Source: an uncultured bacterium (GTDB taxonomy: Bacteria; Oederibacteriota; PGYV01; CAWJRG01). Taken from it: DNA of 64,000 bases. Both the position numbers and the translations under genes were made by a program. The first letter of the stretch is position 1. The number at the start of each line of letters is the position of its first letter. Below are positions 1 through 12,949 of the stretch, one piece after another. Where the stretch lies: NCBI GenBank assembly GCA_963845185.1, contig CAWJRG010000009.1, forward strand, positions 320,001 to 384,000, written 5' to 3'. The notes beneath the pieces were generated by a model. The model had not been told where the DNA came from. It searched no databases and was given only the letters and a program-made list of their open reading frames with translations.

Positions 1-2
1 AA

Positions 3-1019
3 AGGATACTTGGGTTTATCAAAGAGGAAGCAGACAAGCCGGCAAACCATACTTATCCCATAGGCAGGGGGCATAAAGTTTTTAAGGAAGCAATAATAAG
101 ATGGATGTTGAAAAGATTTGACGTGGATGTAAACGACAAGGAGGTCCTTGCTTTGATAGGCGCCAAGGACGGCATCACGCATCTGCCGCTTGCTTTTGTC
201 AATCCCGGGGATGTTGTCCTGATACCTGACCCTGGTTATCCGGGCTATATTGGCAGCGCCATAATTGCCGGAGCCACGCCTTACATAATGCCGCTGACAA
301 AAGAAAATAATTTTCTGCCTGATATGAAAAAAATTCCCGAGGATGTTTATAAAAAAACAAAAATAATGTTTTTGAACTACCCAAATAACCCTACTTCCGC
401 AATGGCAGGATTTGAGTTTTACGAGGAGGCGCTTTTTTACGCGCAAAAATATGATTTTATAATAGCGCAGGACGCGCCTTATTCCGAAATATATTTCAAG
501 GATCCGCCCATATCGATACTGGAAATAAAGGACGCGAAAAAGAACGTGATTGAGTATTTCTCGATGTCAAAAACCTATAATATGACAGGATGGAGAGTCG
601 GGTTCGCCGTAGGCGGCGAGGATATAATAAACGGGCTTGGCATTGTGAAAGAAAACATGGATTCAGGCACGGTTACCGCGCTTCAGATAGCATCTGCCCG
701 CGCGCTTGATAACTGCGACAAAGAGGCCAGCCAGATAAGGGCGCTTTACAAGAAACGCGCTGAAGTGTTTTATAAAGGCTTAAAATCAGCGGGTTTTGGC
801 GTGCTGGAGCCGGTCGCGACGCTTTATTTGTGGATGGCGATACCGGATAAATATACATCCATGGAATTTGCCTCCAAACTGCTGGATGAAGCAGGAGTTG
901 TGGTTACTCCGGGCATAGGCTTCGGCCAGTCAGGCGATAAATACATAAGGATAGCGCTGACAATCGAGGAAGAAGTGATTGAAAAAGCGCTGGACCGGCT
1001 GGGTAGATTCAAGGCGTAA
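3..1019 (+). CDS. dapL: LL-diaminopimelate aminotransferase (class I/II PLP aminotransferase), 5'-truncated by window edge
   Basis: Frame open from position 3; motifs LIGAKDGITHLPLAF, FLNYPNNPT, FSMSKTYNMTGWRVGF (PLP lysine), PGIGFG. Confidence 0.8.
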   Translation, partial: RILGFIKEEADKPANHTYPIGRGHKVFKEAIIRWMLKRFDVDVNDKEVLALIGAKDGITHLPLAFVNPGDVVLIPDPGYPGYIGSAIIAGATPYIMPLTKENNFLPDMKKIPEDVYKKTKIMFLNYPNNPTSAMAGFEFYEEALFYAQKYDFIIAQDAPYSEIYFKDPPISILEIKDAKKNVIEYFSMSKTYNMTGWRVGFAVGGEDIINGLGIVKENMDSGTVTALQIASARALDNCDKEASQIRALYKKRAEVFYKGLKSAGFGVLEPVATLYLWMAIPDKYTSMEFASKLLDEAGVVVTPGIGFGQSGDKYIRIALTIEEEVIEKALDRLGRFKA

Positions 1020-1119
1020 TCCCTTCTCCCTTTTTTACGGTAATACAGCGCAAACCAGCCAGGCAGGGCGAAAAATCCCCAAAAGCCGGCGGAAAAGAAA
1101 AATTTATGCGGGGTACATC

Positions 1120-2970
1120 ATGAAGATATCAATTTCCAAAATCCGCTTTAATCCCGAAAACCCAAGGCATTTTATCAACCCTGACGGTATAGACAGCCTG
1201 GCCGCGTCCATGGAGGCAGATGGCCAGCTTGAATCCGTGAAAGTCCGCGAACTAACTCCCCAGGACACACCATCGCAGGGGTGCACCGCTATAGAGCCTG
1301 CCGAATACGAGCTTTTTGAGGGCGAGAGGCGCCTGCGGGCAGCAATGAAACTGGGCTGGACCGAGATAGAGGCTGAAGTATTTACGGGAAACAGGGAGGA
1401 CTTTTCCCTGAAGGGGTTCATGAACAATAATGGGGAGCCATACCACTGGCTGGACAAGTACAGGTATATAGCCGATTACATGGCAAAGCACCCCGACCTG
1501 ACACAAAGACAAATTGCAGACAAGCTTAACGTCGGCCTGACCATAGTTAATAACGCAAACAAAGTCATACCCCTGCTAAATGAGGGCGCAATGGCTGAAA
1601 TTGTTCGCATTGCGAACAAAACCACTGACTGGGAGGTGCCTGAAAGGTCAGTAGTTACGCTTTCCGGGCTGGCAAATGGCCAAAATAACGTTCTTGACCT
1701 TATGGAAAGGGCTCTGAAGGTGCTTATAGCCGGGAAAATGACTGAAAAACAGGTCAAAAAGCTGGCGGAGTGGGTAAAAGCAGGCAATTCACCGGAATCC
1801 TTCGGGGAGAGCGGCAAAACACACCCCTCGCCCCCTGAGGCGGGAGAGAGTCAGAGTGAGGGGGCTACTTCTGTAGCTGCAAATTCCGCTGAAGGCGACC
1901 AGGAATCCGGCCTAAACGGCGGGCGGCATGCCAAATTGTTGCAGGAGCTGAAGGATACAGGGTATTTTGAGATAAAAACGCCAGCCAAGAGCGGCCTTAA
2001 TATTATAATACAGGACGAGGACAGCGGCGCATTGGCAGCGCTTGGCGCGGCAGGGGCGATTTGGGCGCTGGGTCATCCGGATGGCGGCAAGCTGGACGAT
2101 AACCCGTATCTGGCAGACTTGCCCGGGCTCATAAAAGAAGTTCAAGGTTCAAGGCTCAATGGTCAACCAGCCTACGCCAACGCTATGGCGCACAAGCAGG
2201 CGGCTAAGGCAGCTCAAGAGGAAAGTAAAGTTCAAGGTTCAAAAGCTCAAGGGGTTCAAAGTGAGGGTATGGTAAGTAAATTCCAAATCCCAAACTCTGA
2301 AAATCCCAAATTGAATTCCCTTGACCTTGTTAAAAATATTTTGACAGCTGCCTCGGGCCACACGCCAAAGACTTTTTCCGGCAAAATATTGAAAACAGCG
2401 GCCATGTGGATGGCAAATAAGTTCAATAGCTCAACGGTCAAGGTTCAAGGTAATGAATTCCAAATTCCAAACTCTGAAAATCCCAAATTGAATAGTGCCA
2501 AATCCCAAATTCCGAATGGCTCTGCCGTAGTACGCAACACGATATTTGTAGTCATTGCTATTGCGATAGGTGCCTTTGCCCTGCTGCTTGGCCTGAAGAA
2601 GATAGCGCCTGGCGGACACTTCAGGGCTGCGTATTCTGCGGCGGCGCAAAAGCCAGGTGTTGTAACGCCTGTCACGTATAATAAGAGCAGGGAGTGGAAA
2701 CAGGCAATGCAGTGTTTTGCGGCAGCGGATTACGCAAGCGCGTTTATGTGGCTTGGAAAAACCGAGGAGAAATACGGCGACCAGGCGGATATTTACAGAT
2801 TAATGGGAGACTGCGAAAATAAACTGGGTAATTATCCGGATGCGGTAGAGCTCTATGAAAAGTATTCGAAAATGAACCCGGACGACGAGGAAATAAAAGC
2901 GAAGATTGAAGAGTTAAAGTCGACTGTGTCGCCGCCCGCCGGAATGGAAGAACCCACGCAGGAGCAGTAG
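1120..2970 (+). CDS. ParB/Spo0J N-terminal domain protein with HTH, long linker, TM helix and C-terminal TPR
   Basis: ISKIRFNPENPR, LAASMEADGQL, EGERRLRA (ParB Arg patch); LTQRQIADKLNV HTH; hydrophobic IFVVIAIAIGAFALLLGL; TPR-like YRLMGDCENKLGNYPDAVELYEKY. ATG at 1120 preferred to 979. Confidence 0.75.
   Translation: MKISISKIRFNPENPRHFINPDGIDSLAASMEADGQLESVKVRELTPQDTPSQGCTAIEPAEYELFEGERRLRAAMKLGWTEIEAEVFTGNREDFSLKGFMNNNGEPYHWLDKYRYIADYMAKHPDLTQRQIADKLNVGLTIVNNANKVIPLLNEGAMAEIVRIANKTTDWEVPERSVVTLSGLANGQNNVLDLMERALKVLIAGKMTEKQVKKLAEWVKAGNSPESFGESGKTHPSPPEAGESQSEGATSVAANSAEGDQESGLNGGRHAKLLQELKDTGYFEIKTPAKSGLNIIIQDEDSGALAALGAAGAIWALGHPDGGKLDDNPYLADLPGLIKEVQGSRLNGQPAYANAMAHKQAAKAAQEESKVQGSKAQGVQSEGMVSKFQIPNSENPKLNSLDLVKNILTAASGHTPKTFSGKILKTAAMWMANKFNSSTVKVQGNEFQIPNSENPKLNSAKSQIPNGSAVVRNTIFVVIAIAIGAFALLLGLKKIAPGGHFRAAYSAAAQKPGVVTPVTYNKSREWKQAMQCFAAADYASAFMWLGKTEEKYGDQADIYRLMGDCENKLGNYPDAVELYEKYSKMNPDDEEIKAKIEELKSTVSPPAGMEEPTQEQ
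1825..1862. repeat. REP-like GC-rich hairpin copy, in frame inside the ParB gene
   Basis: ccctcgccccctgaggcgggagagagtcagagtgaggg closely matches the reverse complement of the split element at 9532-9547 + 10897-10916. Confidence 0.65.
2279..2493 (+). repeat. 38-bp direct repeat (2279-2316, 2456-2493)
   Basis: aattccaaat(c/t)ccaaactctgaaaatcccaaattgaat, 1 mismatch; encodes FQIPNSENPKLN twice. Confidence 0.9.
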
Positions 2971-3174
2971 AAGTGATGCTAAAAAAGCTTTGGACCATTT
3001 TAAGAAGGGTTCGTGAATACCGAATGCCGAATTCCAAATGGCCTTGGCGGAAGGCGGTAAAATGGATATTAAAGAAATTAAAAAAGGGTTCATGATTGGA
3101 ATGCGTTGAGAAAGCAGTGGAAAAGTGGTAAGCTGGACAAAACACCTGATAAAATAACAGAAAGGATCAGGGAA

Positions 3175-4293
3175 ATGAGATTAAATAATCTTATAGAAGT
3201 AATAGAAAAAACACAGCAGGCTCTGAAAAAGAACGCGCTGACGGCGGTTAATGTTTCGCTGACAATACGAAACTGGCTGATAGGATATTATGTAGTAAGG
3301 TATGAACAAAAAGGGGAAGACAGGGCAAAATACGGTGAAAAACTGTTTGTTGAGATTTCTGGAAAACTTAAAAATAAAGGAATAAAGGGAATGTCGGAAA
3401 CGGCGTTAAGGCTATTCAGGCAATTTTATAAAACTTATCCTGAGCTGCTTAATCCGCCAGCCGGGCTTTTGCAGGCGTCCGGAGGAATAATTCATCAGTC
3501 AGTGACTGATGAATTGGTAAAAGAAGCACAAAAAGGCCTGCGTAGTGAAATGATAAAACAGATGTCTTTTACGCATATCGTTGAGCTTCTTAAAGTTGAT
3601 ACGGAATATAAACGCACGTTTTATGAAACTGAAGCAATCAGAGGCAACTGGTCTGTAAGGCAGTTAAAAAGGCAGATGGGTTCTCTACTGTATGAAAGAA
3701 CAGCGCTTTCAAAACGCAAGGCCCATCTTGTAAAAAAGACGGAATCCGTGCCGGACAAATTTAAAATCGAAGATACAATCAAAGACCCATATGTGCTTGA
3801 ATTCGCGGGCCTGCAGGAAAAGCCCGAGTACTCCGAAAACGACCTTGAAAGGGCCCTTATTACACATATTCAGGAATTTCTGCTGGAGCTTGGGACAGGT
3901 TTCTGTTTTGAAGGCAGGCAATACAGGATAACTACAGGCGGGGAACATGACAGGATAGACCTCGTTTTTTATCACAGGATTCTTCGCTGCCATGTCCTGA
4001 TAGACCTGAAAATAAGGGAGTTTTCACATGCCGATGCAGGGCAGATGAATTTTTATCTTAACTATTTCAGGGACAAGGTGATGAAACCGGGAGACAACCC
4101 GCCTGTGGGGTTGATACTATGTACTTATAAAGACAAAGCAAAGGTAAAATACTCCACAATAGGGCTCGACAACAGGTTGTTTGTTTCAAAATACAAAGTA
4201 TATCTGCCTTCGGAGCGCGAATTACTTCAGGAACTTGAAAGGGAAAAAGAGGATTTTATGCTTAAAGAAGAAGCGGCAAAATATGGGGAATGA
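3175..4293 (+). CDS. DUF1016/YhcG-family PD-(D/E)xK nuclease domain protein
   Basis: RNWLIGYY, DRAKYGEKL, WSVRQLKRQ, KDPYVLEF, FLLELGTGFCFEGRQ, IDLVFYHRILRCHVLIDLK, GQMNFYL, NPPVGLILC. Confidence 0.92.
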   Translation: MRLNNLIEVIEKTQQALKKNALTAVNVSLTIRNWLIGYYVVRYEQKGEDRAKYGEKLFVEISGKLKNKGIKGMSETALRLFRQFYKTYPELLNPPAGLLQASGGIIHQSVTDELVKEAQKGLRSEMIKQMSFTHIVELLKVDTEYKRTFYETEAIRGNWSVRQLKRQMGSLLYERTALSKRKAHLVKKTESVPDKFKIEDTIKDPYVLEFAGLQEKPEYSENDLERALITHIQEFLLELGTGFCFEGRQYRITTGGEHDRIDLVFYHRILRCHVLIDLKIREFSHADAGQMNFYLNYFRDKVMKPGDNPPVGLILCTYKDKAKVKYSTIGLDNRLFVSKYKVYLPSERELLQELEREKEDFMLKEEAAKYGE

Positions 4294-4665
4294 ATCCCGT
4301 AAAGACAAGCCTCTGGTTTCTGGTTTCAAGTCTCTATGTAAGGAAGCCTCTGAACAAGAAACCAGGAATCAGAAATTAGAAACTTTTTCAGAATGCCGAA
4401 TCCCGAATGGCCTTTAATGAACCGGCGCAAAAAAGCTGTGGAAGCATTTTAAGAAGGGTTCGTGATGGAATGCCAAATTCCAAATTCCGAATTCCAAATG
4501 GTTTTTAATGAAGAAAGGGGTAAAATGGATTTTAAAGAAATTTAAGAAGGATTTGTGATGGGATGCGTTGAGAAAGCAGTGGAAAAGTGATAAAGTAAGA
4601 TAACATGAAAGAGGATAAATTACCAGGGAACAGGCAAATCAAAACCTAAAGTATAAGGAGCAGGA

Positions 4666-5787
4666 ATGAAAATCATTGAGAAGGCAGGCACTTTTAACAG
4701 CCTTGTATCCGCAATAAAGGACGTAGATAAACAGTTGGCGGCGCAGGCAAACAAAGCGGTTAATGTCAGCCTGACAATGAGAAACTGGTTTATAGGGTTC
4801 TATATACACGAATACGAAATGAATGGCGCCGACCGTTCCAGATATGGCGCGCGCCTGCTGCCTGCATTATCTGAAAAGCTGTCTGCAGTAAATGTAAGCA
4901 ATACAAACCGCAGGCAACTGTACCGGTATTTACGGTTTTACAGATTGTATCCCTCAATTGTGCGGACACTGCCCCCACAATTGGCAAAAGCCCTGCTGCA
5001 AGGCGCTGTAACAGAAAAAGTGGGGACACTGTCCCCACTTTTGGCAAAGAGGCAGGGAGAAATTATAAGCAGACTTTCTTACAGCCATATCGAACTGCTT
5101 GTTGACATGGAAGACGATACTAAACGCGCTTTTTATGAAATGGAATGCATGCGCGGTGGATGGTCGGTCAGGGAACTAGAGCGGCAGATAAACAGCCTGT
5201 ATTACGAACGCTCCGGACTTTCGAAAAATAAGAAGAAATTAAGCGTAATGACTCATGCAAAGGCCGAAAAAAACGAAAACAAACTGGACATAAGGGACCC
5301 GTTTGTTTTTGAGTTTCTAGGCCTTAAAGCAAAGGAAGTCATGGCTGAATCGCAAATAGAGGACGCCCTGATTGACAAACTGCAGGAATTCCTGCTGGAA
5401 CTCGGGCACGGGTTTTGTTTTGAGGCAAGGCAGAAACGTATACTGATAGGCGAAGAAAACGGGTTCATAGACCTGGTGTTTTATCACAGGGTTTTAAAGT
5501 GCCATGTACTTGTGGAGCTGAAACTCGGAAAATTCAGCCATGAGAATATAGGGCAGCTCAATACTTACGTGAGCTGGTATAAAAAGAACATGATGGAAAA
5601 GGGCGATAATCCGCCTGTGGGAATACTCCTTTGCACCAAAAAAGACCATGCGCTTGTCGAATACGCGCTTGCCGGCATGGATAACAAACTTTTCGTGTCG
5701 AAATACAAGCTTGAGCTGCCGAAGAAAGAAGAAATGGAAAGGTTTATGGAGGAACAAATTGAAAGAACCGGGACGGGCAGGTTGTAA
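4666..5787 (+). CDS. DUF1016/YhcG-family PD-(D/E)xK nuclease domain protein (second copy)
   Basis: RNWFIGFY, WSVRELERQI, RDPFVFEFLGL, FLLELGHGFCFEARQKRI, IDLVFYHRVLKCHVLVELK, NPPVGILLC; RBS aggag. Confidence 0.92.
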   Translation: MKIIEKAGTFNSLVSAIKDVDKQLAAQANKAVNVSLTMRNWFIGFYIHEYEMNGADRSRYGARLLPALSEKLSAVNVSNTNRRQLYRYLRFYRLYPSIVRTLPPQLAKALLQGAVTEKVGTLSPLLAKRQGEIISRLSYSHIELLVDMEDDTKRAFYEMECMRGGWSVRELERQINSLYYERSGLSKNKKKLSVMTHAKAEKNENKLDIRDPFVFEFLGLKAKEVMAESQIEDALIDKLQEFLLELGHGFCFEARQKRILIGEENGFIDLVFYHRVLKCHVLVELKLGKFSHENIGQLNTYVSWYKKNMMEKGDNPPVGILLCTKKDHALVEYALAGMDNKLFVSKYKLELPKKEEMERFMEEQIERTGTGRL

Positions 5788-6019
5788 TCCAAAATCTTGA
5801 ATTATTTTTTCATTGAAAATTGGAAATTGATAATTGAGAATTGTTGAATGATGGATTTTAAAGAAATTCAAGAAGGATATTTGATTGAAATGCCAAAGGG
5901 AGGAATATCAGATATCCGATATTTGATACTGGATATTTTAATCCCGGATTCCGAACAGTCTTTACTTCACCAGAAACCAGGAATTAGAAACAAGAAACTT
6001 CAGATAGGAGGAGAATTTT

Positions 6020-6478
6020 ATGGCGCAGCGAACTAAGTACATAGGTTTGGGCAGGTCGGCTTTAAAAATAAAGTACAAAAAGGCTTTTTATGACTGGGTG
6101 AATTTTAACTATAAATACGACGACCCCTGTGGCGTATATCCGGTGAGACCCGAGGAGGAGTACGACACAGGCAATGTGTACCTCATCCGTGAATTGAACG
6201 ACTCACCAATGGTTTGGGAAAAATGGATAAGGAAGAATTTTCTCAAGATATTCAGGCATGAATTGTACATATGGGAAAACCACAGCAACAGATGGCCCAA
6301 GAACCTGACATGGAAGAAATTCGATAAATTTTTCGAGTATGGTTTCAATCTGGGAGTGTACGATCTTGACGAAGGCAGGCCGATTTACGGCCTCAGCCCT
6401 GGCAGCAGTGAATTGAAACTAATGGATAGGCAGGTCAAAACTTTGAAAAAATGGATGCGCATGCGGGGAAAAATATAG
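6020..6478 (+). CDS. Conserved hypothetical protein
   Basis: RBS aggag; pattern F.DWVN...VYLI...IF..EL..W...WPK..T...F..FF resembles a widespread small unknown-function family. Confidence 0.7.
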   Translation: MAQRTKYIGLGRSALKIKYKKAFYDWVNFNYKYDDPCGVYPVRPEEEYDTGNVYLIRELNDSPMVWEKWIRKNFLKIFRHELYIWENHSNRWPKNLTWKKFDKFFEYGFNLGVYDLDEGRPIYGLSPGSSELKLMDRQVKTLKKWMRMRGKI

Positions 6479-6603
6479 AAGCCGGCCGGCCGCCTAAAAA
6501 AAAGCGTGAAAAAGCTGTGGAAGCATTTTAAGAAGGATATTTGATTGGAATGCCGAAGGGTTTGTTGAAGGATGGATTTTGAGGTGAAAGGAGAAACTTT
6601 ATA

Positions 6604-7245
6604 ATGAAAAGAAAAAAAATGAAAAAAATTTTTATCGAATGTCCCTTTTGTAACGATAAAAATGAAGGAGAAATAATTGGAACTAATCTAGAGGATGTTA
6701 ATCCAGAAGATGATATTCCATATACGACGATATCATTAGTTAGATGCAAGAAATGTAGAAAGGCAATTCTGTTAAAAGATGAATTACAACCAATCAAAGA
6801 TACCGATGAGTGGGCCTGTAGTGGTGATGAACGCTTATGGCCAAGTCCGGAATTTATTTTTGACAATGCGATACCAGCAAATATAAGAAAATCCTTGGAA
6901 GAAGCATACAGATGTTATAAAGTTAGAGCTTATGATGCTTGTGCGGTAATGTGCGGAAAAGCACTTGAAGCTGTCGGGAAAGAATATAAGGTTGAGTCTG
7001 ATACTCTTGATAAAATTCTTAAAGAATTAAAAGAAAAAGAAATTATAGATAAAAGAATTGTTGAATGGGGGGATGCATTAAGAAGAATTAGAAATATAGG
7101 AGCTCATGCTTCGACTGCTGAAATAACGAATCAAGATGCGGTTGATTTGCTTGAATTTATAAAGGCCATATGCGAATATATATTTGTATTAACTAAAAGG
7201 TATGATACTTTCAAGGCCAGATTAGGAAAAAAGATAGGTGAATGA
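6604..7245 (+). CDS. DUF4145 (HEPN-like) protein with N-terminal zinc ribbon
   Basis: CPFC...CKKC; EAYRCY...ACAVMCGKALE; LRRIRNIGAH (RxxxxH-type motif). Confidence 0.85.
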   Translation: MKRKKMKKIFIECPFCNDKNEGEIIGTNLEDVNPEDDIPYTTISLVRCKKCRKAILLKDELQPIKDTDEWACSGDERLWPSPEFIFDNAIPANIRKSLEEAYRCYKVRAYDACAVMCGKALEAVGKEYKVESDTLDKILKELKEKEIIDKRIVEWGDALRRIRNIGAHASTAEITNQDAVDLLEFIKAICEYIFVLTKRYDTFKARLGKKIGE

Positions 7246-7431
7246 ATGGACGAGAAATTGGAAAACGTACTAAAAGGACAATCTGAAGCCTCAGAAAAGA
7301 GATTTTGAAGCTGAAACTAAGGAAGGTTATCTCGCTCTTTGAGCGTAACGATAAGCTAAAAATCAACACTGTTTACAGATGAAGAACGCAGAAATAGAGT
7401 TTAAAACTATATAGGGGAAGGTGATAAATTA

Positions 7432-7671
7432 ATGGACACCGTCGTAATAAATGCTAAGGAAGAATATGCATATGGTTATATAATTAATGCGTTAGCGGGA
7501 GGATTATATCCCGATAAATTTCATGTCATAAGAGAATATATTCAAAATGGTTATGATGCAATAATAAATTGGAAGAAGATTTCGAAAGATAAAACTTCAA
7601 GTATTAAGGTTGTATTAAATAAACCTTCTATTATCAGACCTTGCCCTTTGAACAGTTCAGAACTTAACTAA
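7432..7671 (+). pseudogene. Truncated GHKL/HSP90-like ATPase N-terminus
   Basis: LAGGLYPDKFHVIREYIQNGYDA is motif I of GHKL ATPases; ORF ends before the DNG motif. Confidence 0.7.
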
Positions 7672-7719
7672 TTGCTGATTTAAACCAATTATTTAAAGGA
7701 GTGTGAAGGTGTACAAATA

Positions 7720-8562
7720 ATGAGCTTACATGATAAAGTAAAAGAACAAGTGCTGTTAAGCTGTAATAGTCTAGGTTTTCAAGCCAAGGAAGAATACAGT
7801 GGTAAAGATTGGCAAGCAGATGTTTTTGTGCTTACTAATTACGCAAAATATGCCTTTGAAGTTCAAATAACTCAGCAGTCATTGAATGAAACGTTGGCAA
7901 GACAGGAAAAATATAAAAGGGATGGTGTCATCGGCTGTTGGCTGTTTGAAAAAGAGCCAGCTGGGCAAAAAGATGAAAGAGAAGACCTTCCTTTATTTAA
8001 GATAAAAAATGTAGAAGATAAAACTATTGTATCCATCAAAGATAGAAAAGAACTGCCACTAGAAGTTTTTATTAGTGATTATCTTCAGAATAAAATTAAA
8101 TTTTGTCAAACACTTAGGATGCCTATAGCAGAGATTAGATTTGTAAAAGAAAAATGTTGGAAATGTGGCTTCGAATATCATATCTACTATATTGGTAACT
8201 TTATTTCGCCGTGCAATGCAAAAATATTGCCTAATGAAGCAATGTGGGTTTCAGACAAATTAGCATTTAAGCCTGAGATTATTACTAAAGTGAATGACTA
8301 TGCAATATCCGTAAAGGAACAAAACTTGAATATTGGAACAATAAAAGAACGGTACAGTAAAACGACAGAGAGTTCATATGTATCTTTTGGGTGTCCGCAA
8401 TGCGATGCTATATTCGGGGACTGGTTTCTTCACGAAGCAATTATTGACACATTCTATGGAGGAATTGCTGATAAAATACTAATTGAGGGGAATTTTGGTA
8501 CGCAATTAGAACGAAGTATTCCACATTGGTGTCATCCCGGCGAACATATGTTTTGTGAGTGA
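7720..8562 (+). CDS. CoiA-like PD-(D/E)xK nuclease with C-terminal Zn-finger
   Basis: WQADVFV...AFEVQITQQS...RQEKY...CWLF; CWKC and CPQC pairs. Confidence 0.65.
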   Translation: MSLHDKVKEQVLLSCNSLGFQAKEEYSGKDWQADVFVLTNYAKYAFEVQITQQSLNETLARQEKYKRDGVIGCWLFEKEPAGQKDEREDLPLFKIKNVEDKTIVSIKDRKELPLEVFISDYLQNKIKFCQTLRMPIAEIRFVKEKCWKCGFEYHIYYIGNFISPCNAKILPNEAMWVSDKLAFKPEIITKVNDYAISVKEQNLNIGTIKERYSKTTESSYVSFGCPQCDAIFGDWFLHEAIIDTFYGGIADKILIEGNFGTQLERSIPHWCHPGEHMFCE

Positions 8563-8875
8563 CGGGAAAGCTGCTGCCGGATTTTACCCCACGCTAGCGA
8601 GAGAGTTGAAAGTTGAACAGGCGATGGAAAGATAGAAAAGGAAATCGGGAATAGAGAATAGGGAATAGGAGAAGGAAAATGTTGGGTGCAGATTGTAGAG
8701 TGTTGATTGAAAGATGAAAACGTAACTTTTAAGGCCTGACACCAACTTTCCCCGGCTTCCGGTGTCGAAAGTATTGTAATTATAAGTTGATATGCGGCAG
8801 AGGATGTTATATTATGTATTCCTGTAAGGAATATAGAGACAAAAAAAATGCCCTGAGAAGGGCGGGAGGCAACAA

Positions 8876-9352
8876 ATGGCACAGAAAAAGCAACAGGCAA
8901 AAAAGGAAAAGACAGGCAACAGTAATCCGGTAGTTATCTGCATTGCGGCAGTGCTTGCCGTAGCTTTAATCATCGCGGCAGTTAAATTGGGCGGCGCCAA
9001 TAAGAAATTGGCGGCAGCAACCGCCCAGTTAAAAACAGCCCAGGCAACTATTGCCCAGCAGCAAACCCTGCTGGCAGCGAAACCGCCGCTTCCGGTTTCC
9101 ACCGCGCTTTCCACACCCGGCCAGTATAAAAACACCGTGGTTTTTTTAACAAATACAAACGTGCCGCAGCCTCTTACAGTCACGGCAACCCTGTCAAACC
9201 CGGCTCCCAATAAACCAGGCACATACGTGTTAAACATAAATCCCGGCGCGAAAAAGTCTTTTGGCCACGCGCAGGGACTGATTTTTAACCACGGAGACAG
9301 GATCACTTTCCACAACGACAGTTATTCTGATGTCACGGTGGTAATACCGTAA
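8876..9352 (+). CDS. Hypothetical membrane-anchored protein
   Basis: RBS ggagg; N-terminal TM, short coiled coil, beta-rich C-terminal domain; followed by a terminator. Confidence 0.75.
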   Translation: MAQKKQQAKKEKTGNSNPVVICIAAVLAVALIIAAVKLGGANKKLAAATAQLKTAQATIAQQQTLLAAKPPLPVSTALSTPGQYKNTVVFLTNTNVPQPLTVTATLSNPAPNKPGTYVLNINPGAKKSFGHAQGLIFNHGDRITFHNDSYSDVTVVIP

Positions 9353-9371
9353 ATCAGGCGTAAAAAAGAGT

Positions 9372-9418
9372 CCTAAAAAACCACGGGAACAATACGAGCC
9401 CCGTGGTTTTTTTTTAGG
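9372..9418 (+). terminator. Rho-independent (likely bidirectional) terminator
   Basis: cctaaaaaaccacggg-loop-cccgtggtttttttttagg. Confidence 0.85.
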
Positions 9419-9639
9419 AGATGCGCTTTGAAAGCGAAAGAAAAAAGCAAAAAGTGTTAGACCTTGCTTCGTGCTTTATTAAATTTATTTTATGTCAAGA
9501 ACTGTTTTTTTCAGGAGAGGGAGATAAAGCACCCTCACCCTGTTCCTGTTGAAGAATACTTATTATATATTTTATGGACTCTCAACGTTGAATATTCCAC
9601 TGGAATATTCAACCCCTTCTCTGAAAAGGCTTGTCAAGC

Positions 9640-9790
9640 ACAAATCCAAGTATAAGGGCTAAAATGTTAATTAACCTTCTCTTCGCCGCAGTTCTTTTCA
9701 CCCGGCATTATAACAAATCAAATTAAGGCCCTCTAACCTCTCCCACAGCCCAGAAGATTTACTGACTCAGGGGAAAACAGAGCGGCCTAT
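9640..9790 (-). ncRNA. Putative bridge/seek RNA of the IS110 element (approximate limits)
   Basis: Two internal-loop stems; GGGAGAGG (9737-9744) matches the target flank and AGAGAAGG (9675-9682) matches the element end. Confidence 0.6.
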
Positions 9791-10808
9791 AAGTATATTT
9801 TTTATATATCCTTTCTTCATAACCACGATTTTCTTTGAGCATTTTAAATATTATTTCTGCCATGTGCCTTGCAACTGCTATTATTGCCTTGTTTGAACCT
9901 CTGCGGCTTTTTACGTTCAAGTATATTGATTTAAAATACAAAGAACTTCTTACCGCTGTCCAAGCTGCTTCTACAAACGCACATTTTAAATGTTTGTTTG
10001 CCTGCCTTATTATCGGACCTCTATGTATTGTTTTATTACTCGCATATTCGCTTGGAACCAATCCGGCATATGACGCTAATCGTTTTGCCTTAGAGAATCT
10101 ATTTATATCAACTATTTCAAACGCCACTACCTTTGAAAGAACTTCTCCAAATCCAGGTACCGTCTTTATTATTTCCACATATCTATCTTTCCCTGTCATT
10201 TCTTTTGCAAGTTTTTCTGTTGCCTTTATTCCTGTATTAAGTTCGTCCACCAAATGCATCTCGAGGTTCAGCAATTCACGTTCGCTTTTTACCAGTTCGA
10301 CTCTTTCTATTGTGTCCCTGCCTTTTTTCCCAAACAAATCGCTGTGTACGCTTGTATCTATATGGTTCCTTGTCAATAACTGGTGCACCCTATTTTTTAC
10401 AGCTGTCCGTGTGCTCACCAGGAATTGCCTCTCTCTTAATATGTTCTTCTTAAGCCTTATTTCCTTCGACGGCACATATACTTCCGGTATTAAATTTGCT
10501 CTCAACAAATGGGCCAATATCTCCGAATCCCTTACATCGTTTTTTATCTGGCTTTCCGCTATCGCTCTCAGCTTCTGCGCATGCGCCAATTTTGTCTTTA
10601 CGCCGAGTTCCTCCAAAAGGTCGTACACTACTCCCCAGCAGTACGTTGTCTCAATTACCGCTTCGCATTCCTCTCCAATCTCAGCCAGCATTTTCTTAAA
10701 ATCCTCTGTCCTGTTTGAAAGAGCTCCTCTAAATCTGACTTGACCTTCTTTTGTCACCGCTGTAACATAAGACACGTTCTTGTGCACGTCCACACCAAGA
10801 TACAACAT
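9759..10808 (-). CDS. IS110-family DEDD transposase/recombinase
   Basis: YLGVDVHK, VIETT, KNDVRDSEILA, VPGFG, LASYAGLVPSEYAS, KAIIAVARH; RBS aggagg. Confidence 0.95.
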   Translation of the reverse strand: MLYLGVDVHKNVSYVTAVTKEGQVRFRGALSNRTEDFKKMLAEIGEECEAVIETTYCWGVVYDLLEELGVKTKLAHAQKLRAIAESQIKNDVRDSEILAHLLRANLIPEVYVPSKEIRLKKNILRERQFLVSTRTAVKNRVHQLLTRNHIDTSVHSDLFGKKGRDTIERVELVKSERELLNLEMHLVDELNTGIKATEKLAKEMTGKDRYVEIIKTVPGFGEVLSKVVAFEIVDINRFSKAKRLASYAGLVPSEYASNKTIHRGPIIRQANKHLKCAFVEAAWTAVRSSLYFKSIYLNVKSRRGSNKAIIAVARHMAEIIFKMLKENRGYEERIYKKYTYRPLCFPLSQ

Positions 10809-10929
10809 ACGGCACCTCCTAGGTTTTTAATGTTGTGGGTGCTAACACACGCCACGTTACCATTATACCTGGGGGTGCCTTCTTTTCATATTACCTCTCC
10901 CGCAAGTGGGGGAGGGAGATAAGGATAAA

Positions 10930-11421
10930 ATGAAAAATACTATATATCTTTCTCTCGGAAGCAACATAGGAGACAGGAAAAAAAACATAGCTGAAGCTAT
11001 TGATTCACTGGAAAAAGCAGGAATCAGAATAAAAAAAAAATCAGCATTATATGAAACCGAGCCTGTGGGCATAAAGGAACAGGAAAATTTTTATAATATG
11101 TGCTTAGCCGCGGAAACAGAGCTCGAGCCTGAAGATTTATTGAAAAAAATAAAAGAAATAGAAGCGAAAATCGGCAGGCTTCCATCGCAGCGCTGGGGGC
11201 CGAGGATTATAGATATTGACATATTATTTTATAATAATATAATATTTGAGAATGAAGATTTAAAAATTCCGCATCCTGAAATTTTAAACAGGAAATTTGT
11301 GCTTATCCCCATGGCTGAAATAGCAGGTGACTATGTTCATCCGGTAATTAATTCAAAAATCAAGGATATTTTGAAAAATAGCAATTTGATTGAGAAGGTA
11401 ATAAAAATAGGAGTTATATAA
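10930..11421 (+). CDS. folK: 2-amino-4-hydroxy-6-hydroxymethyldihydropteridine diphosphokinase
   Basis: YLSLGSNIGDR, YETEPVG, RWGPRIIDIDIL, IPHP. Confidence 0.95.
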   Translation: MKNTIYLSLGSNIGDRKKNIAEAIDSLEKAGIRIKKKSALYETEPVGIKEQENFYNMCLAAETELEPEDLLKKIKEIEAKIGRLPSQRWGPRIIDIDILFYNNIIFENEDLKIPHPEILNRKFVLIPMAEIAGDYVHPVINSKIKDILKNSNLIEKVIKIGVI

Positions 11422-11424
11422 TTT

Positions 11425-12072
11425 ATGGCGGATTTCCATTATATCGCTATCGAAGGCGTATTAGGGGCAGGAAAGACTTCTTTTGCAAAGAGAATGGCAA
11501 AAGACCTGTCGGCGCGGCTGGTGCTGGAGGAAGTGGACAATAACCCGTTTCTTCCGGGCTTTTACAAGGACATGAAAAATTTCGCTTTGCAGACCCAGCT
11601 TTTTTTCCTTTTAAACAGGGCAAAACAGCAGGCGCCTTTAAAGCAGATGGATTTATTTGAAAACAAGATAGTGGCGGATTATTTGATTGAAAAGGACAGG
11701 ATTTTCGCTTATGTGATACTTGACGAAAACGAACTTAACCTTTATGAGAAAATTTACCCAATAGTGGTTGACGACGCAAAGTTATTAAAACCCGACATTG
11801 TAGTGTATTTGCAGGCAAGCGCCGAGGTTTTAATAGAAAGGATAAAAAGGCGCGGCAGGGACTTTGAAAAGCACATTTCAAAAGAGTATATAGGCAGGCT
11901 TGCAGAGGCGTATACTTATTTTTTTACGCATTTTGACAGCAGGACACCGCTTGTAATAGTAAATACCGATGAAATTGATTTTGTGAACGACGAGGAGCAT
12001 TACCAGATGATTAAACAATTTATTTTTAATATAAAAGGCGGAGTTAATTATTACACCCCGCGCCCAAAATAA
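11425..12072 (+). CDS. Deoxynucleoside kinase
   Basis: IAIEGVLGAGKTS P-loop, NPFLPGFY, QLFFLLNR, RIKRRGRDFE. Confidence 0.9.
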   Translation: MADFHYIAIEGVLGAGKTSFAKRMAKDLSARLVLEEVDNNPFLPGFYKDMKNFALQTQLFFLLNRAKQQAPLKQMDLFENKIVADYLIEKDRIFAYVILDENELNLYEKIYPIVVDDAKLLKPDIVVYLQASAEVLIERIKRRGRDFEKHISKEYIGRLAEAYTYFFTHFDSRTPLVIVNTDEIDFVNDEEHYQMIKQFIFNIKGGVNYYTPRPK

Positions 12073-12877: not shown

Positions 12878-12932
12878 ATCCCCTTTGACAAAGGGGATTT
12901 AAAATCCCCCTCACCCCCTTTATTAAAGGGGG
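12878..12932. repeat. Tandem REP-like hairpins between panB and panC
   Basis: atcccctttg-a-caaaggggat and ccccctttattaaaggggg. Confidence 0.65.
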
Positions 12933-12949
12933 TGGAAAGAAGAAAACGA

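Follow-up and report, generated by a model that had tools for sequence, protein, structure and literature searches.

The palindromes embedded in frame in the two DUF1016/YhcG nuclease genes of the DNA analysed here can be regarded as three local copies of a feature found throughout the DUF1016 family, and there is about an even chance that such in-gene palindromes are cognate duplex binding sites for the proteins encoded around them. The window, by which the whole stretch of 64,000 nucleotides is meant (G000:C9:320001-384000), belongs to the genome of an uncultured bacterium of the Oederibacteriota, 3.50 Mb in 11 contigs; positions without a contig number are those of the window, other positions in this genome are preceded by the contig (C1, C5 and so on), and sampled loci carry L numbers. 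An earlier note, made from the letters of this stretch, had drawn attention to five palindromes in it and had offered a self-encoded binding or cleavage site, a cruciform and a mobile unit of nine codons as possible explanations. Among these options a self-encoded binding site is favoured for the DUF1016 sites because their symmetry is of a duplex type, their core covaries with a single helix of the protein, and the N-terminal domain (N-domain) of the protein is weakly ParB/KorB-like.

All five palindromes are present where the earlier note had placed them (Table 1): three are perfect, with arms of 13 nt around one central base (13-1-13), one is a perfect 9-1-9, and one pairs at 11 of 13 positions. 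They are three different things, namely DUF1016 sites, a site in a ParB-like gene, and a repetitive extragenic palindromic (REP)-like repeat. Six perfect centres (arm of at least 9, loop of 1) are found in the window, compared with a mean of 0.17 and a maximum of 1 in 30 block shuffles, and none of 300 synonymous shuffles attained the arm of 13 seen at 3489-3515. The three DUF1016 copies do have the same codon phase, the centre being the first base of a codon in each of them. In gene b the two sites are 60 nt (20 codons) apart and their inner 19-mers differ at two positions, 4956-4982 having one change per arm relative to 5016-5042. A CANTG centre and a length of 27 bp, presented earlier as a hallmark common to the copies, describe the DUF1016 unit, which is of ca. 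27 bp (AATT-N7-CA-N-TG-N7-AATT), and do not make one group of the five palindromes. The centre varies in the intergenic family, and the ParB site is centred on codon position 2.

The distribution of the feature was followed in DUF1016 DNA from 30 loci of the same phylum, 80 IMG/VR contigs and 80 genome records, the last from Chlorobi, Nitrospirae, Spirochaetes, Lentisphaerota, Planctomycetes, Verrucomicrobia, Desulfobacterota, Proteobacteria, Clostridia, Bacteroidota, Cyanobacteria, Deinococcales and two archaeal orders. In these loci the open reading frames (ORFs) run from stop to stop, the search for sites was limited to the stretch between two alignment anchors, and the genome-record set is biased toward the long-linker subfamily, a narrower alignment having served as the query. 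At least one site was found in 152 of 172 non-identical DUF1016 genes (all sets), with one to three per gene, and 198 of the 203 sites are centred on codon position 1, although many of the loci are kin to one another, so that these counts overstate independence. For 28 of the 30 genes from the same phylum, no palindrome anywhere in the gene is better than the one in the linker before an (L/I)(S/P)W.H motif, which most often directly precedes that motif and has its centre on codon position 1. The genome under study contains five DUF1016 genes (tblastn); in four of them, with identical place and phase, the arms are perfect over 13-14 bp, and the fifth has an 8-1-8 at the same spot. Two sites lie within Escherichia coli K-12 yhcG (12/13 and 15/16, phase 0), and their core, GCAGACA-G-TGTCTGC, recurs in a perfect 12-1-12 palindrome 28 nt past the yhcG stop codon (L211 8971-8995), between yhcG and nanQ.

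Linker palindromicity is in clear excess over what synonymous codon choice provides. For 96 linkers the mean perfect arm is 9.5 bp, as against 4.1 bp in synonymous shuffles in which protein and codon usage were kept; 51 of these linkers exceed all 300 shuffles, and p<0.05 was obtained for 73. The refutation foreseen in the earlier note, in which no excess over shuffles would be seen, therefore does not apply. This excess and a covariation of the arms in all four Watson-Crick types uphold the view that the palindromes are DNA-level elements and not a by-product of the protein. No description of a DUF1016 palindrome was found in the searchable literature, a search outside which subscription-only papers and supplements lie; the palindromes dealt with in the available parts of PMC4316617 and PMC13734603 are only Rickettsia palindromic elements and cif gene palindromes, respectively. 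The tests of duplex versus hairpin, the comparison of cores within genes, and the analysis of helix-specific covariation with its controls were carried out here.

The nature of the constraint was analysed with pair statistics on centre-anchored, ungapped segments, with pairs k numbered outward from the centre. All four Watson-Crick types are represented at pairs k=3-9; pairs k=1-2 and k=10-13, by contrast, are conserved. A centre on codon position 1, as read from the sequence, makes second codon positions pair with third and first with first, and this is the phase that constrains the peptide least. Arm mismatches (A:C 21, G:T 17, other 14) reveal no bias of the G:U type. When sites were defined by pairs k>=3 only, both innermost pairs were complementary in 52 of 73, compared with 8.1 expected from the codon usage of the gene. 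Because the innermost pairs are kept even though a hairpin cannot form them, and because there is no G:U bias, the symmetry of the DUF1016 sites is of the kind that belongs to duplex DNA, or that a copying process leaves behind, rather than the kind expected of an RNA or DNA stem-loop.

These results bear on two explanations in which a stem-loop is formed. In one, a cruciform or a hairpin of single-stranded DNA would be recognised by its shape, and perhaps cut, by the PD-(D/E)XK nuclease or by a host factor, with a role in recombination, in gene conversion, or as a sensor of damage or infection. We consider this quite improbable, given that the innermost pairs, impossible in the tip of a hairpin, are nevertheless retained, and that recognition of shape provides no reason for covariation with a helix or for common cores within a gene. 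It would account for the conservation of complementarity rather than sequence at k=3-9, and it would be in line with the probable PD-(D/E)XK fold of the C-terminal domain, whose weak Foldseek matches (MGME1 5zyv, E 5.7e-3; Cas4 SSO0001 4ic1; NucS/EndoMS 2vld; Hjc 2wiw) include the Holliday-junction resolvase Hjc and NucS/EndoMS, and with a mosaic gene, L124, in which the core at -19 belongs to a class unlike that at -51 and -38. In the other, the palindrome would act as an mRNA hairpin in the coding region, be it a translation pause at the domain boundary, an RNase site or an attenuator. The position in an interdomain linker, always on the sense strand of the gene, would suit such a hairpin, which is very improbable all the same: there is no excess of G:U-compatible mismatches, the pairs flanking a loop of 1 nt are conserved, and Rfam detected no relevant family at E<=1 in window positions 1-12000, with one chance match to a long non-coding RNA only.

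A copying process could produce symmetry of the kind observed. The palindrome might be functionless and self-perpetuating, template switching at a quasi-palindrome copying one arm onto the other, so that changes would be reverted or made symmetric and the palindrome would be kept perfect, unbound, in a linker that the protein tolerates. Several observations speak for this explanation: perfect symmetry reaches up to 20 bp and runs through the centre, mismatches are without strand bias, and among relatives with flanks 80-88% identical the changes are mostly paired (e.g., one paired and none single, or three paired and one single); quasipalindromes are moreover known hotspots of template switching in E. 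coli (PMC7202029). It is rather unlikely as a full account, however, since it leaves unexplained why palindromes in coding regions mark two DNA-binding families in this genome, why covariation of the core is restricted to one helix when other columns are just as variable, and why the same core is present at two sites 30-99 nt apart in anciently conserved slots. Gene b site 4956-4982, besides, keeps one uncorrected change per arm.

The sites are arranged in arrays. In the long-linker subfamily, which includes genes a and b, 10, 32, 29 and 6 genes have zero, one, two and three sites, respectively; the slots, at about -19 and at -40 to -50 codons from the anchor His, are conserved, and all 40 spacings between sites are divisible by 3. 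Cores within a gene are alike, with 6.7 of 9 positions identical compared with 4.3 of 9 between genes, and at least 7 of 9 positions are common in 33 of 46 pairs. Each DUF1016 core (17-mer, up to two mismatches) is found only in its own gene in this genome: allowing two mismatches to the 17-mer cores uncovered no further genomic copies of the sites, and half-sites show no enrichment. That the palindromes are a small mobile unit of nine codons, inserted in frame in the manner of Rickettsia palindromic elements or REP, is consequently hardly to be expected, every core being unique in the genome. Arrays of one to three per linker with a spacing in whole codons would fit a unit of that kind, and this genome does have families of palindromic repeats; against it, the slots are conserved across phyla, and the REP-like families of the genome have arms that are different and conserved. 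A coding segment that would invert between two sites was also considered and found no support, the antisense frame being open in 23 of 40 intervals as compared with 27 and 16 for control frames.

Covariation between the core and the protein is concentrated in one helix. It was assessed in the long-linker set by mutual information with average product correction (APC-MI); in the pooled set, short-linker match columns partly encode the palindrome itself, a trivial signal. In 60 non-redundant long-linker genes the top columns versus half-site bases were residues 83, 140, 86 and 87, followed by 82, 84, 81 and 79, with a maximum APC-MI of 0.49 versus 0.21 for the best of 20 permutations. The correspondence can be recognised by eye: helix RRQLYRYLRFY pairs with core GTGGGGACA, as in gene b site 5016-5042; RELRRYR with CGGGAG(T/A)CA, including Methanomicrobium and a genome of the Deinococcales; SR(S/T)LRQ with TTGGCAGACA, E. 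coli YhcG having a similar helix and core; NERRFREF with TTCGGCACACA; and TAPELSR with CTTGGGT. In a pairwise regression on 56 genes, residues 79-94 predicted the identity of the core with a standardised beta of 0.39, attained by none of 500 permutations, and restricting the analysis to sites 15 or more codons away from the helix left the value at 0.39 (0/500). The betas for other segments were 0.08 (residues 57-77), 0.09 (12-52), 0.09 (138-160), -0.06 (161-189) and 0.03 (nuclease domain). Evolutionary rate does not account for the covariation of helix and core: each of the 12 best 16-column windows overlaps residues 79-94, the best window elsewhere that evolves equally fast reached an r of 0.22, and in 300 draws of column sets from the 60 most variable other columns the r of 0.46 of residues 79-94 was never attained. 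These residues would be those that contact DNA. Gene L124, from a metagenome-assembled genome of the Desulfobacteraceae, is a mosaic in which the -51 and -38 sites have the CGGAAATC core, fitting its own helix class, and the -19 site has the GTGGGGACA core of another class.

Structure prediction with AlphaFold2 (AF2) gave for gene b a mean predicted local distance difference test score (pLDDT) of 86.6 for the full protein and 87.3 for the N-domain. The peptides encoded by its palindromes (residues 97-106 and 117-126) are located in a linker of low confidence (pLDDT 63-70), between helix H82-94 and the next helices. Residues 74-85 of gene a are probably equivalent to residues 82-94 of gene b, to judge from the common pattern (S/T)..L...R.FY..YP. 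Fold comparison of the N-domain (VIA-align) rendered as its best matches ParB-parS 6s6h (Z 5.4; 103 residues aligned, root mean square deviation 4.8) and Spo0J 1vz0 (Z 5.1; 90 aligned, 2.6), and further KorB-operator 1r71 (Z 4.6), KorB 8qa8 (4.4), SopB-DNA (4.0), VirB-DNA (3.9) and P1 ParB-DNA (3.7). A sequence search of the PDB with the DUF1016 profile gave no matches, and Foldseek with the full DUF1016 model gave nothing at E<=0.001.

A number of observations weigh against a self-encoded binding site. With regard to the fold, the Z of ca. 5 for the N-domain is under the caution line of the tool, 8-13 for helical models; an hhalign comparison of DUF1016_N with the ParB-like family indicated no relation (probability 0.2); and the Pfam helix-turn-helix (HTH) family HTH_ParB (PF17762) matched DUF1016 with an E of 0.0075, below the cut-off, a match with which the ParB/KorB-type fold assignment of DUF1016_N, itself only suggestive, agrees. 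With regard to the covariation, the permutation tests ignore phylogeny, and the helix codons adjoin the first palindrome, so that co-inheritance of both as one recombining block could mimic recognition. In the short-linker set (41 genes), beta was 0.25 for the helix and 0.27 for the nuclease domain; both predict the core there, and subfamily structure therefore contributes. With regard to the sites, 20 of the 172 DUF1016 genes have none, and perfect symmetry over 13-20 bp exceeds the usual symmetry of operators and fits a copying mechanism. Finally, a classical operator should have a further copy on the promoter side, and such a copy was seen in no more than three loci (L070, L073 and L074) when phase-0 sites were searched for in L001-L110 and in the genes of this genome; in these three a second, near-identical copy is located ca. 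340 nt upstream, near the gene start.

If the in-gene palindromes are binding sites, the following mechanism can be proposed, in which binding, the reading of bases by residues and the regulatory purpose are the parts that we infer. The DUF1016 site lies in a flexible linker whose codons follow immediately, on the 3' side, those of a single N-domain helix. A dimer of the N-domain, possibly of the ParB/KorB HTH type, would bind the palindrome, and the variable residues at the start of the helix would read the variable 7-bp core; template switching may, also in this case, maintain the perfect symmetry. Since the site travels inside the ORF, reader and site would be inherited together as the single-gene guest cassette moves between operons and genomes. 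The likeliest use would be self-contained autoregulation of a potentially toxic nuclease by means of an operator or roadblock within the gene, ahead of the half that codes for the nuclease; alternatively, the palindrome might be a site of loading or cleavage. According to PMC9881135, members of the DUF1016/YhcG family are guest genes inside type I restriction-modification (R-M) and other operons. A guest gene cannot rely on a promoter operator, which would explain why the operator is carried in the ORF.

A bolder proposal, which we regard as improbable, is that each YhcG/DUF1016 gene is a self-addressed cassette of reader and address, whose nuclease has as its target a 27-bp site unique to its own gene, at which it may cut or load, the site serving discrimination between self and non-self rather than mere autoregulation. 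Genes with different cores would then be mutually orthogonal, and discrimination between competing copies of an element could amount to exclusion, to homing-like gene conversion, or to a genome-integrity sensor in defence. New specificities could originate in template-switch events that alter the palindrome symmetrically, the adjacent helix changing afterwards, and thousands of genes would provide a natural table of helix residues versus DNA bases. YhcG/DUF1016 is a very widespread and uncharacterised family of nucleases and a PADLOC candidate for a role in defence; its members are known from E. coli K-12, from contigs of phages and plasmids, and from type I R-M and other defence operons. Were the in-ORF palindrome a cognate site, the sequence of the gene alone would reveal the DNA target of each member, and an orphan family would gain a target that can be tested. 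More generally, it would be a design in which promoter-less single-gene cassettes have their own operator or address in the ORF, in the least costly codon phase.

A parallel feature in a multicopy ParB-like family suggests that this design is not confined to one family. Gene 1120-2970 is a true relative of ParB: its product contains ParB_N (PF02195; E 2.2e-08, 34.5 bits versus a Pfam cut-off of 26.3), and the profile of its family matches Spo0J 1vz0 (E 6.7e-24, with the HTH aligned) and Noc (1.4e-23). It is unlikely to encode a chromosomal partition protein because there are 6-7 paralogues per genome and because of its TPR tail; 6-7 paralogues were counted in this genome and up to 15 matches in related genomes. 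In 6 of 6 paralogues here a perfect 9-1-9 is present at the homologous spot, in four sequences (TTGTTCGCA, TTTACCGAA, AACTCCGGA and TTTACCGGA), so that the ParB-gene palindrome was rightly included in the earlier note, even though its phase and family differ from those of DUF1016. Perfect arms of 7 bp or longer are present at that spot in 15 of 23 ParB-like ORFs, all centred on codon position 2, a centre with which codons pair codon for codon. By analogy, the palindrome fits a candidate parS-like site within the gene, and the ParB-like family would do with its 9-1-9 what is proposed above for DUF1016.

Sites of this type are also found outside genes. Three different TTTA...TAAA 9-1-9 palindromes occur within 300 bp in an ORF-poor stretch (C9:673873-674169), and one of them has the arms of the in-gene site of the ParB-like paralogue at C9:608240; similar pairs of palindromes are located at C5:412744/413002 and C10:731540/731664. 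The C9 stretch may be an array of sites for several ParB-like paralogues. Within the ParB-like gene of the window, a direct repeat of 38 nt, 97% identical (2279-2316 and 2456-2493), lies in the low-complexity middle and is related to CCAAAT/CCGAAT-rich intergenic motifs at 3016-3041 and 4385-4501.

The intergenic palindrome 9587-9613, which had been coupled to the nucleases, is a REP-like repeat unrelated to them. Its family comprises 65 members (up to three substitutions) all over the genome, with conserved arms and a variable centre of 3 nt; the centres include CTGTG (18), CAGTG (7), CACTG (6) and CACAG (6), and copies with the same arms, the centre base aside, are at C10:190924 and C5:752945. 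An association of this family with IS110 was considered and rejected, given that only one of five full-length identical IS110 copies is within 150 bp of a member. A scan of the genome rendered 172 perfect palindromes (arms of at least 11, loops 0-5), mostly members of repeat families. A second palindromic family has constant outer arms, GTAGAGAC...GTCTCTAC (e.g., C1:230569, C10:399706, C5:146716, C9:193371), and at least three alternative inner parts that are also symmetric (ACGCCATGGCGT, GTTTTGCAAAAC and GACCCGSCGGGTC). A third repeated palindrome, (AT)CCCCCTTTA-T-TAAAGGGGG(AT), occurs twice in the window, 34 nt apart (12878-12898 and 12912-12934), and about 15 more times in the genome.

The annotated features of the window are collected in Table 1. 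Gene a matches DUF1016_N (PF17761; E 3.7e-28) and YhcG_C (PF06250; E 1.6e-57), as well as PADLOC PDC-S02 (E 1.6e-129); with 98.8 and 194.2 bits for gene a and 88.0 and 185.6 bits for gene b, the Pfam cut-offs of 32.8 and 32.5 are exceeded in both. A leader-like segment is repeated upstream of four successive genes (2978-3131, 4420-4593, 5839-5889 and 6499-6549), which are the two DUF1016 genes, a 152-aa ORF of no known kind and a DUF4145 gene; partial copies are near other ParB-like or DUF1016 paralogues (C1:4300-5550, C9:930651-931219, C9:673608-674315 and C10:317118-317157). The repeated segments suggest a recurrent type of island made of a ParB-like gene plus cargo. Gene a and two DUF1016 paralogues, 29-33% identical to it, have in common their 3' end (peptide ...LKEEAAKYGE) and the DNA just past it (4230-4330, C9:656425-656490 and C9:929527-929589), as if this were a shared cassette boundary. 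The DUF1016 paralogues C9:655470-656478 and C9:929536-930534, one of them frameshifted, have near-identical flanks around a divergent patch of ca. 35 codons that spans the palindrome and the next helix.

Table 1. Genes, helix codons and palindromes of the window
Feature	Position	Strand	Remarks
ParB-like gene	1120..2970	+	ParB_N domain, GERRLRAA box at 1321-1344, HTH, TPR tail
Perfect 9-1-9 palindrome TTGTTCGCA-T-TGCGAACAA (peptide IVRIANK)	1601..1619		In the ParB-like gene, centre on codon position 2; candidate parS-like site
DUF1016/YhcG gene a	3175..4293	+	DUF1016_N followed by YhcG_C PD-(D/E)XK nuclease; PADLOC candidate PDC-S02
Codons for gene a residues 74-85 (SETALRLFRQFY)	3394..3429	+	Positional counterpart of the covarying helix
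Perfect 13-1-13 palindrome AATTCATCAGTCA-G-TGACTGATGAATT (IIHQSVTDEL)	3489..3515		Centre on codon position 1; candidate cognate site of gene a
DUF1016/YhcG gene b	4666..5787	+	43.8% identity to gene a; PADLOC PDC-S02, E 4e-124
Codons for gene b residues 79-94 (turn and helix H82-94, NTNRRQLYRYLRFY)	4900..4947	+	Candidate DNA-recognition helix
11/13 palindrome AATTGTGCGGACA-C-TGCCCCCACAATT (IVRTLPPQL)	4956..4982		Upstream member of the two-site array of gene b
Perfect 13-1-13 palindrome AAAAGTGGGGACA-C-TGTCCCCACTTTT (KVGTLSPLL)	5016..5042		Gene b, conserved slot 19 codons before the anchor His
Member of 27-bp REP-like family (GTYAAATAGTCC-NNN-GGACTATTTRAC)	9587..9613		Intergenic, perfect 13-1-13; outside the nuclease system
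IS110-family transposase	9759..10808	-	Five full-length identical copies in the genome, one interrupted

A comparison with known systems places the palindromes of this genome in different company. The 9587-9613 family resembles REP: its palindrome is short, the arms are conserved, and 65 copies are spread over the genome. Template-switch mutagenesis at quasipalindromes in E. coli (PMC7202029) would render arm changes symmetric, like those between close relatives of DUF1016 genes, but it is a mutational mechanism and not a functional element, and it predicts neither specificity for a family nor covariation with a helix. Perfect inverted repeats of up to 284 bp in coding sequences are similar to the DUF1016 site in that protein function is kept in a compromise between DNA symmetry and coding; they affect many genes of one genome, however, and cover conserved regions of the proteins, whereas the DUF1016 site is short, belongs to one gene family, lies in a variable linker and covaries with a helix. 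Intragenic operators or transcriptional roadblocks are known in purR, gal OI and lac O2. They share with the proposal made here a repressor-type site in the coding region that acts on the expression of the gene itself, and differ from it in being species-specific, imperfect and found alongside promoter operators, while the in-ORF site of DUF1016 is conserved in its position in bacteria, archaea and viral contigs alike and diversifies together with the protein. In the ParB-parS, KorB-OB and Noc-NBS systems, proteins with an HTH of the ParB/KorB type bind palindromic sites, some of which are in or beside their own gene; Lin and Grossman reportedly described in 1998 a parS inside spo0J of Bacillus subtilis. 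DUF1016 has no detectable sequence homology to the ParB-like family, and it is without the ParB_N CTPase domain, having a PD-(D/E)XK nuclease instead; its site is of 27 bp with an odd centre and one fixed codon phase in a linker, and is present in genome-unique arrays of one to three and not in a centromere cluster. The likeness to these systems resides in the combination, predicted for DUF1016, of a dimeric HTH protein with a palindromic duplex site, and in the location of that site inside its own ORF, where it differs between paralogues.

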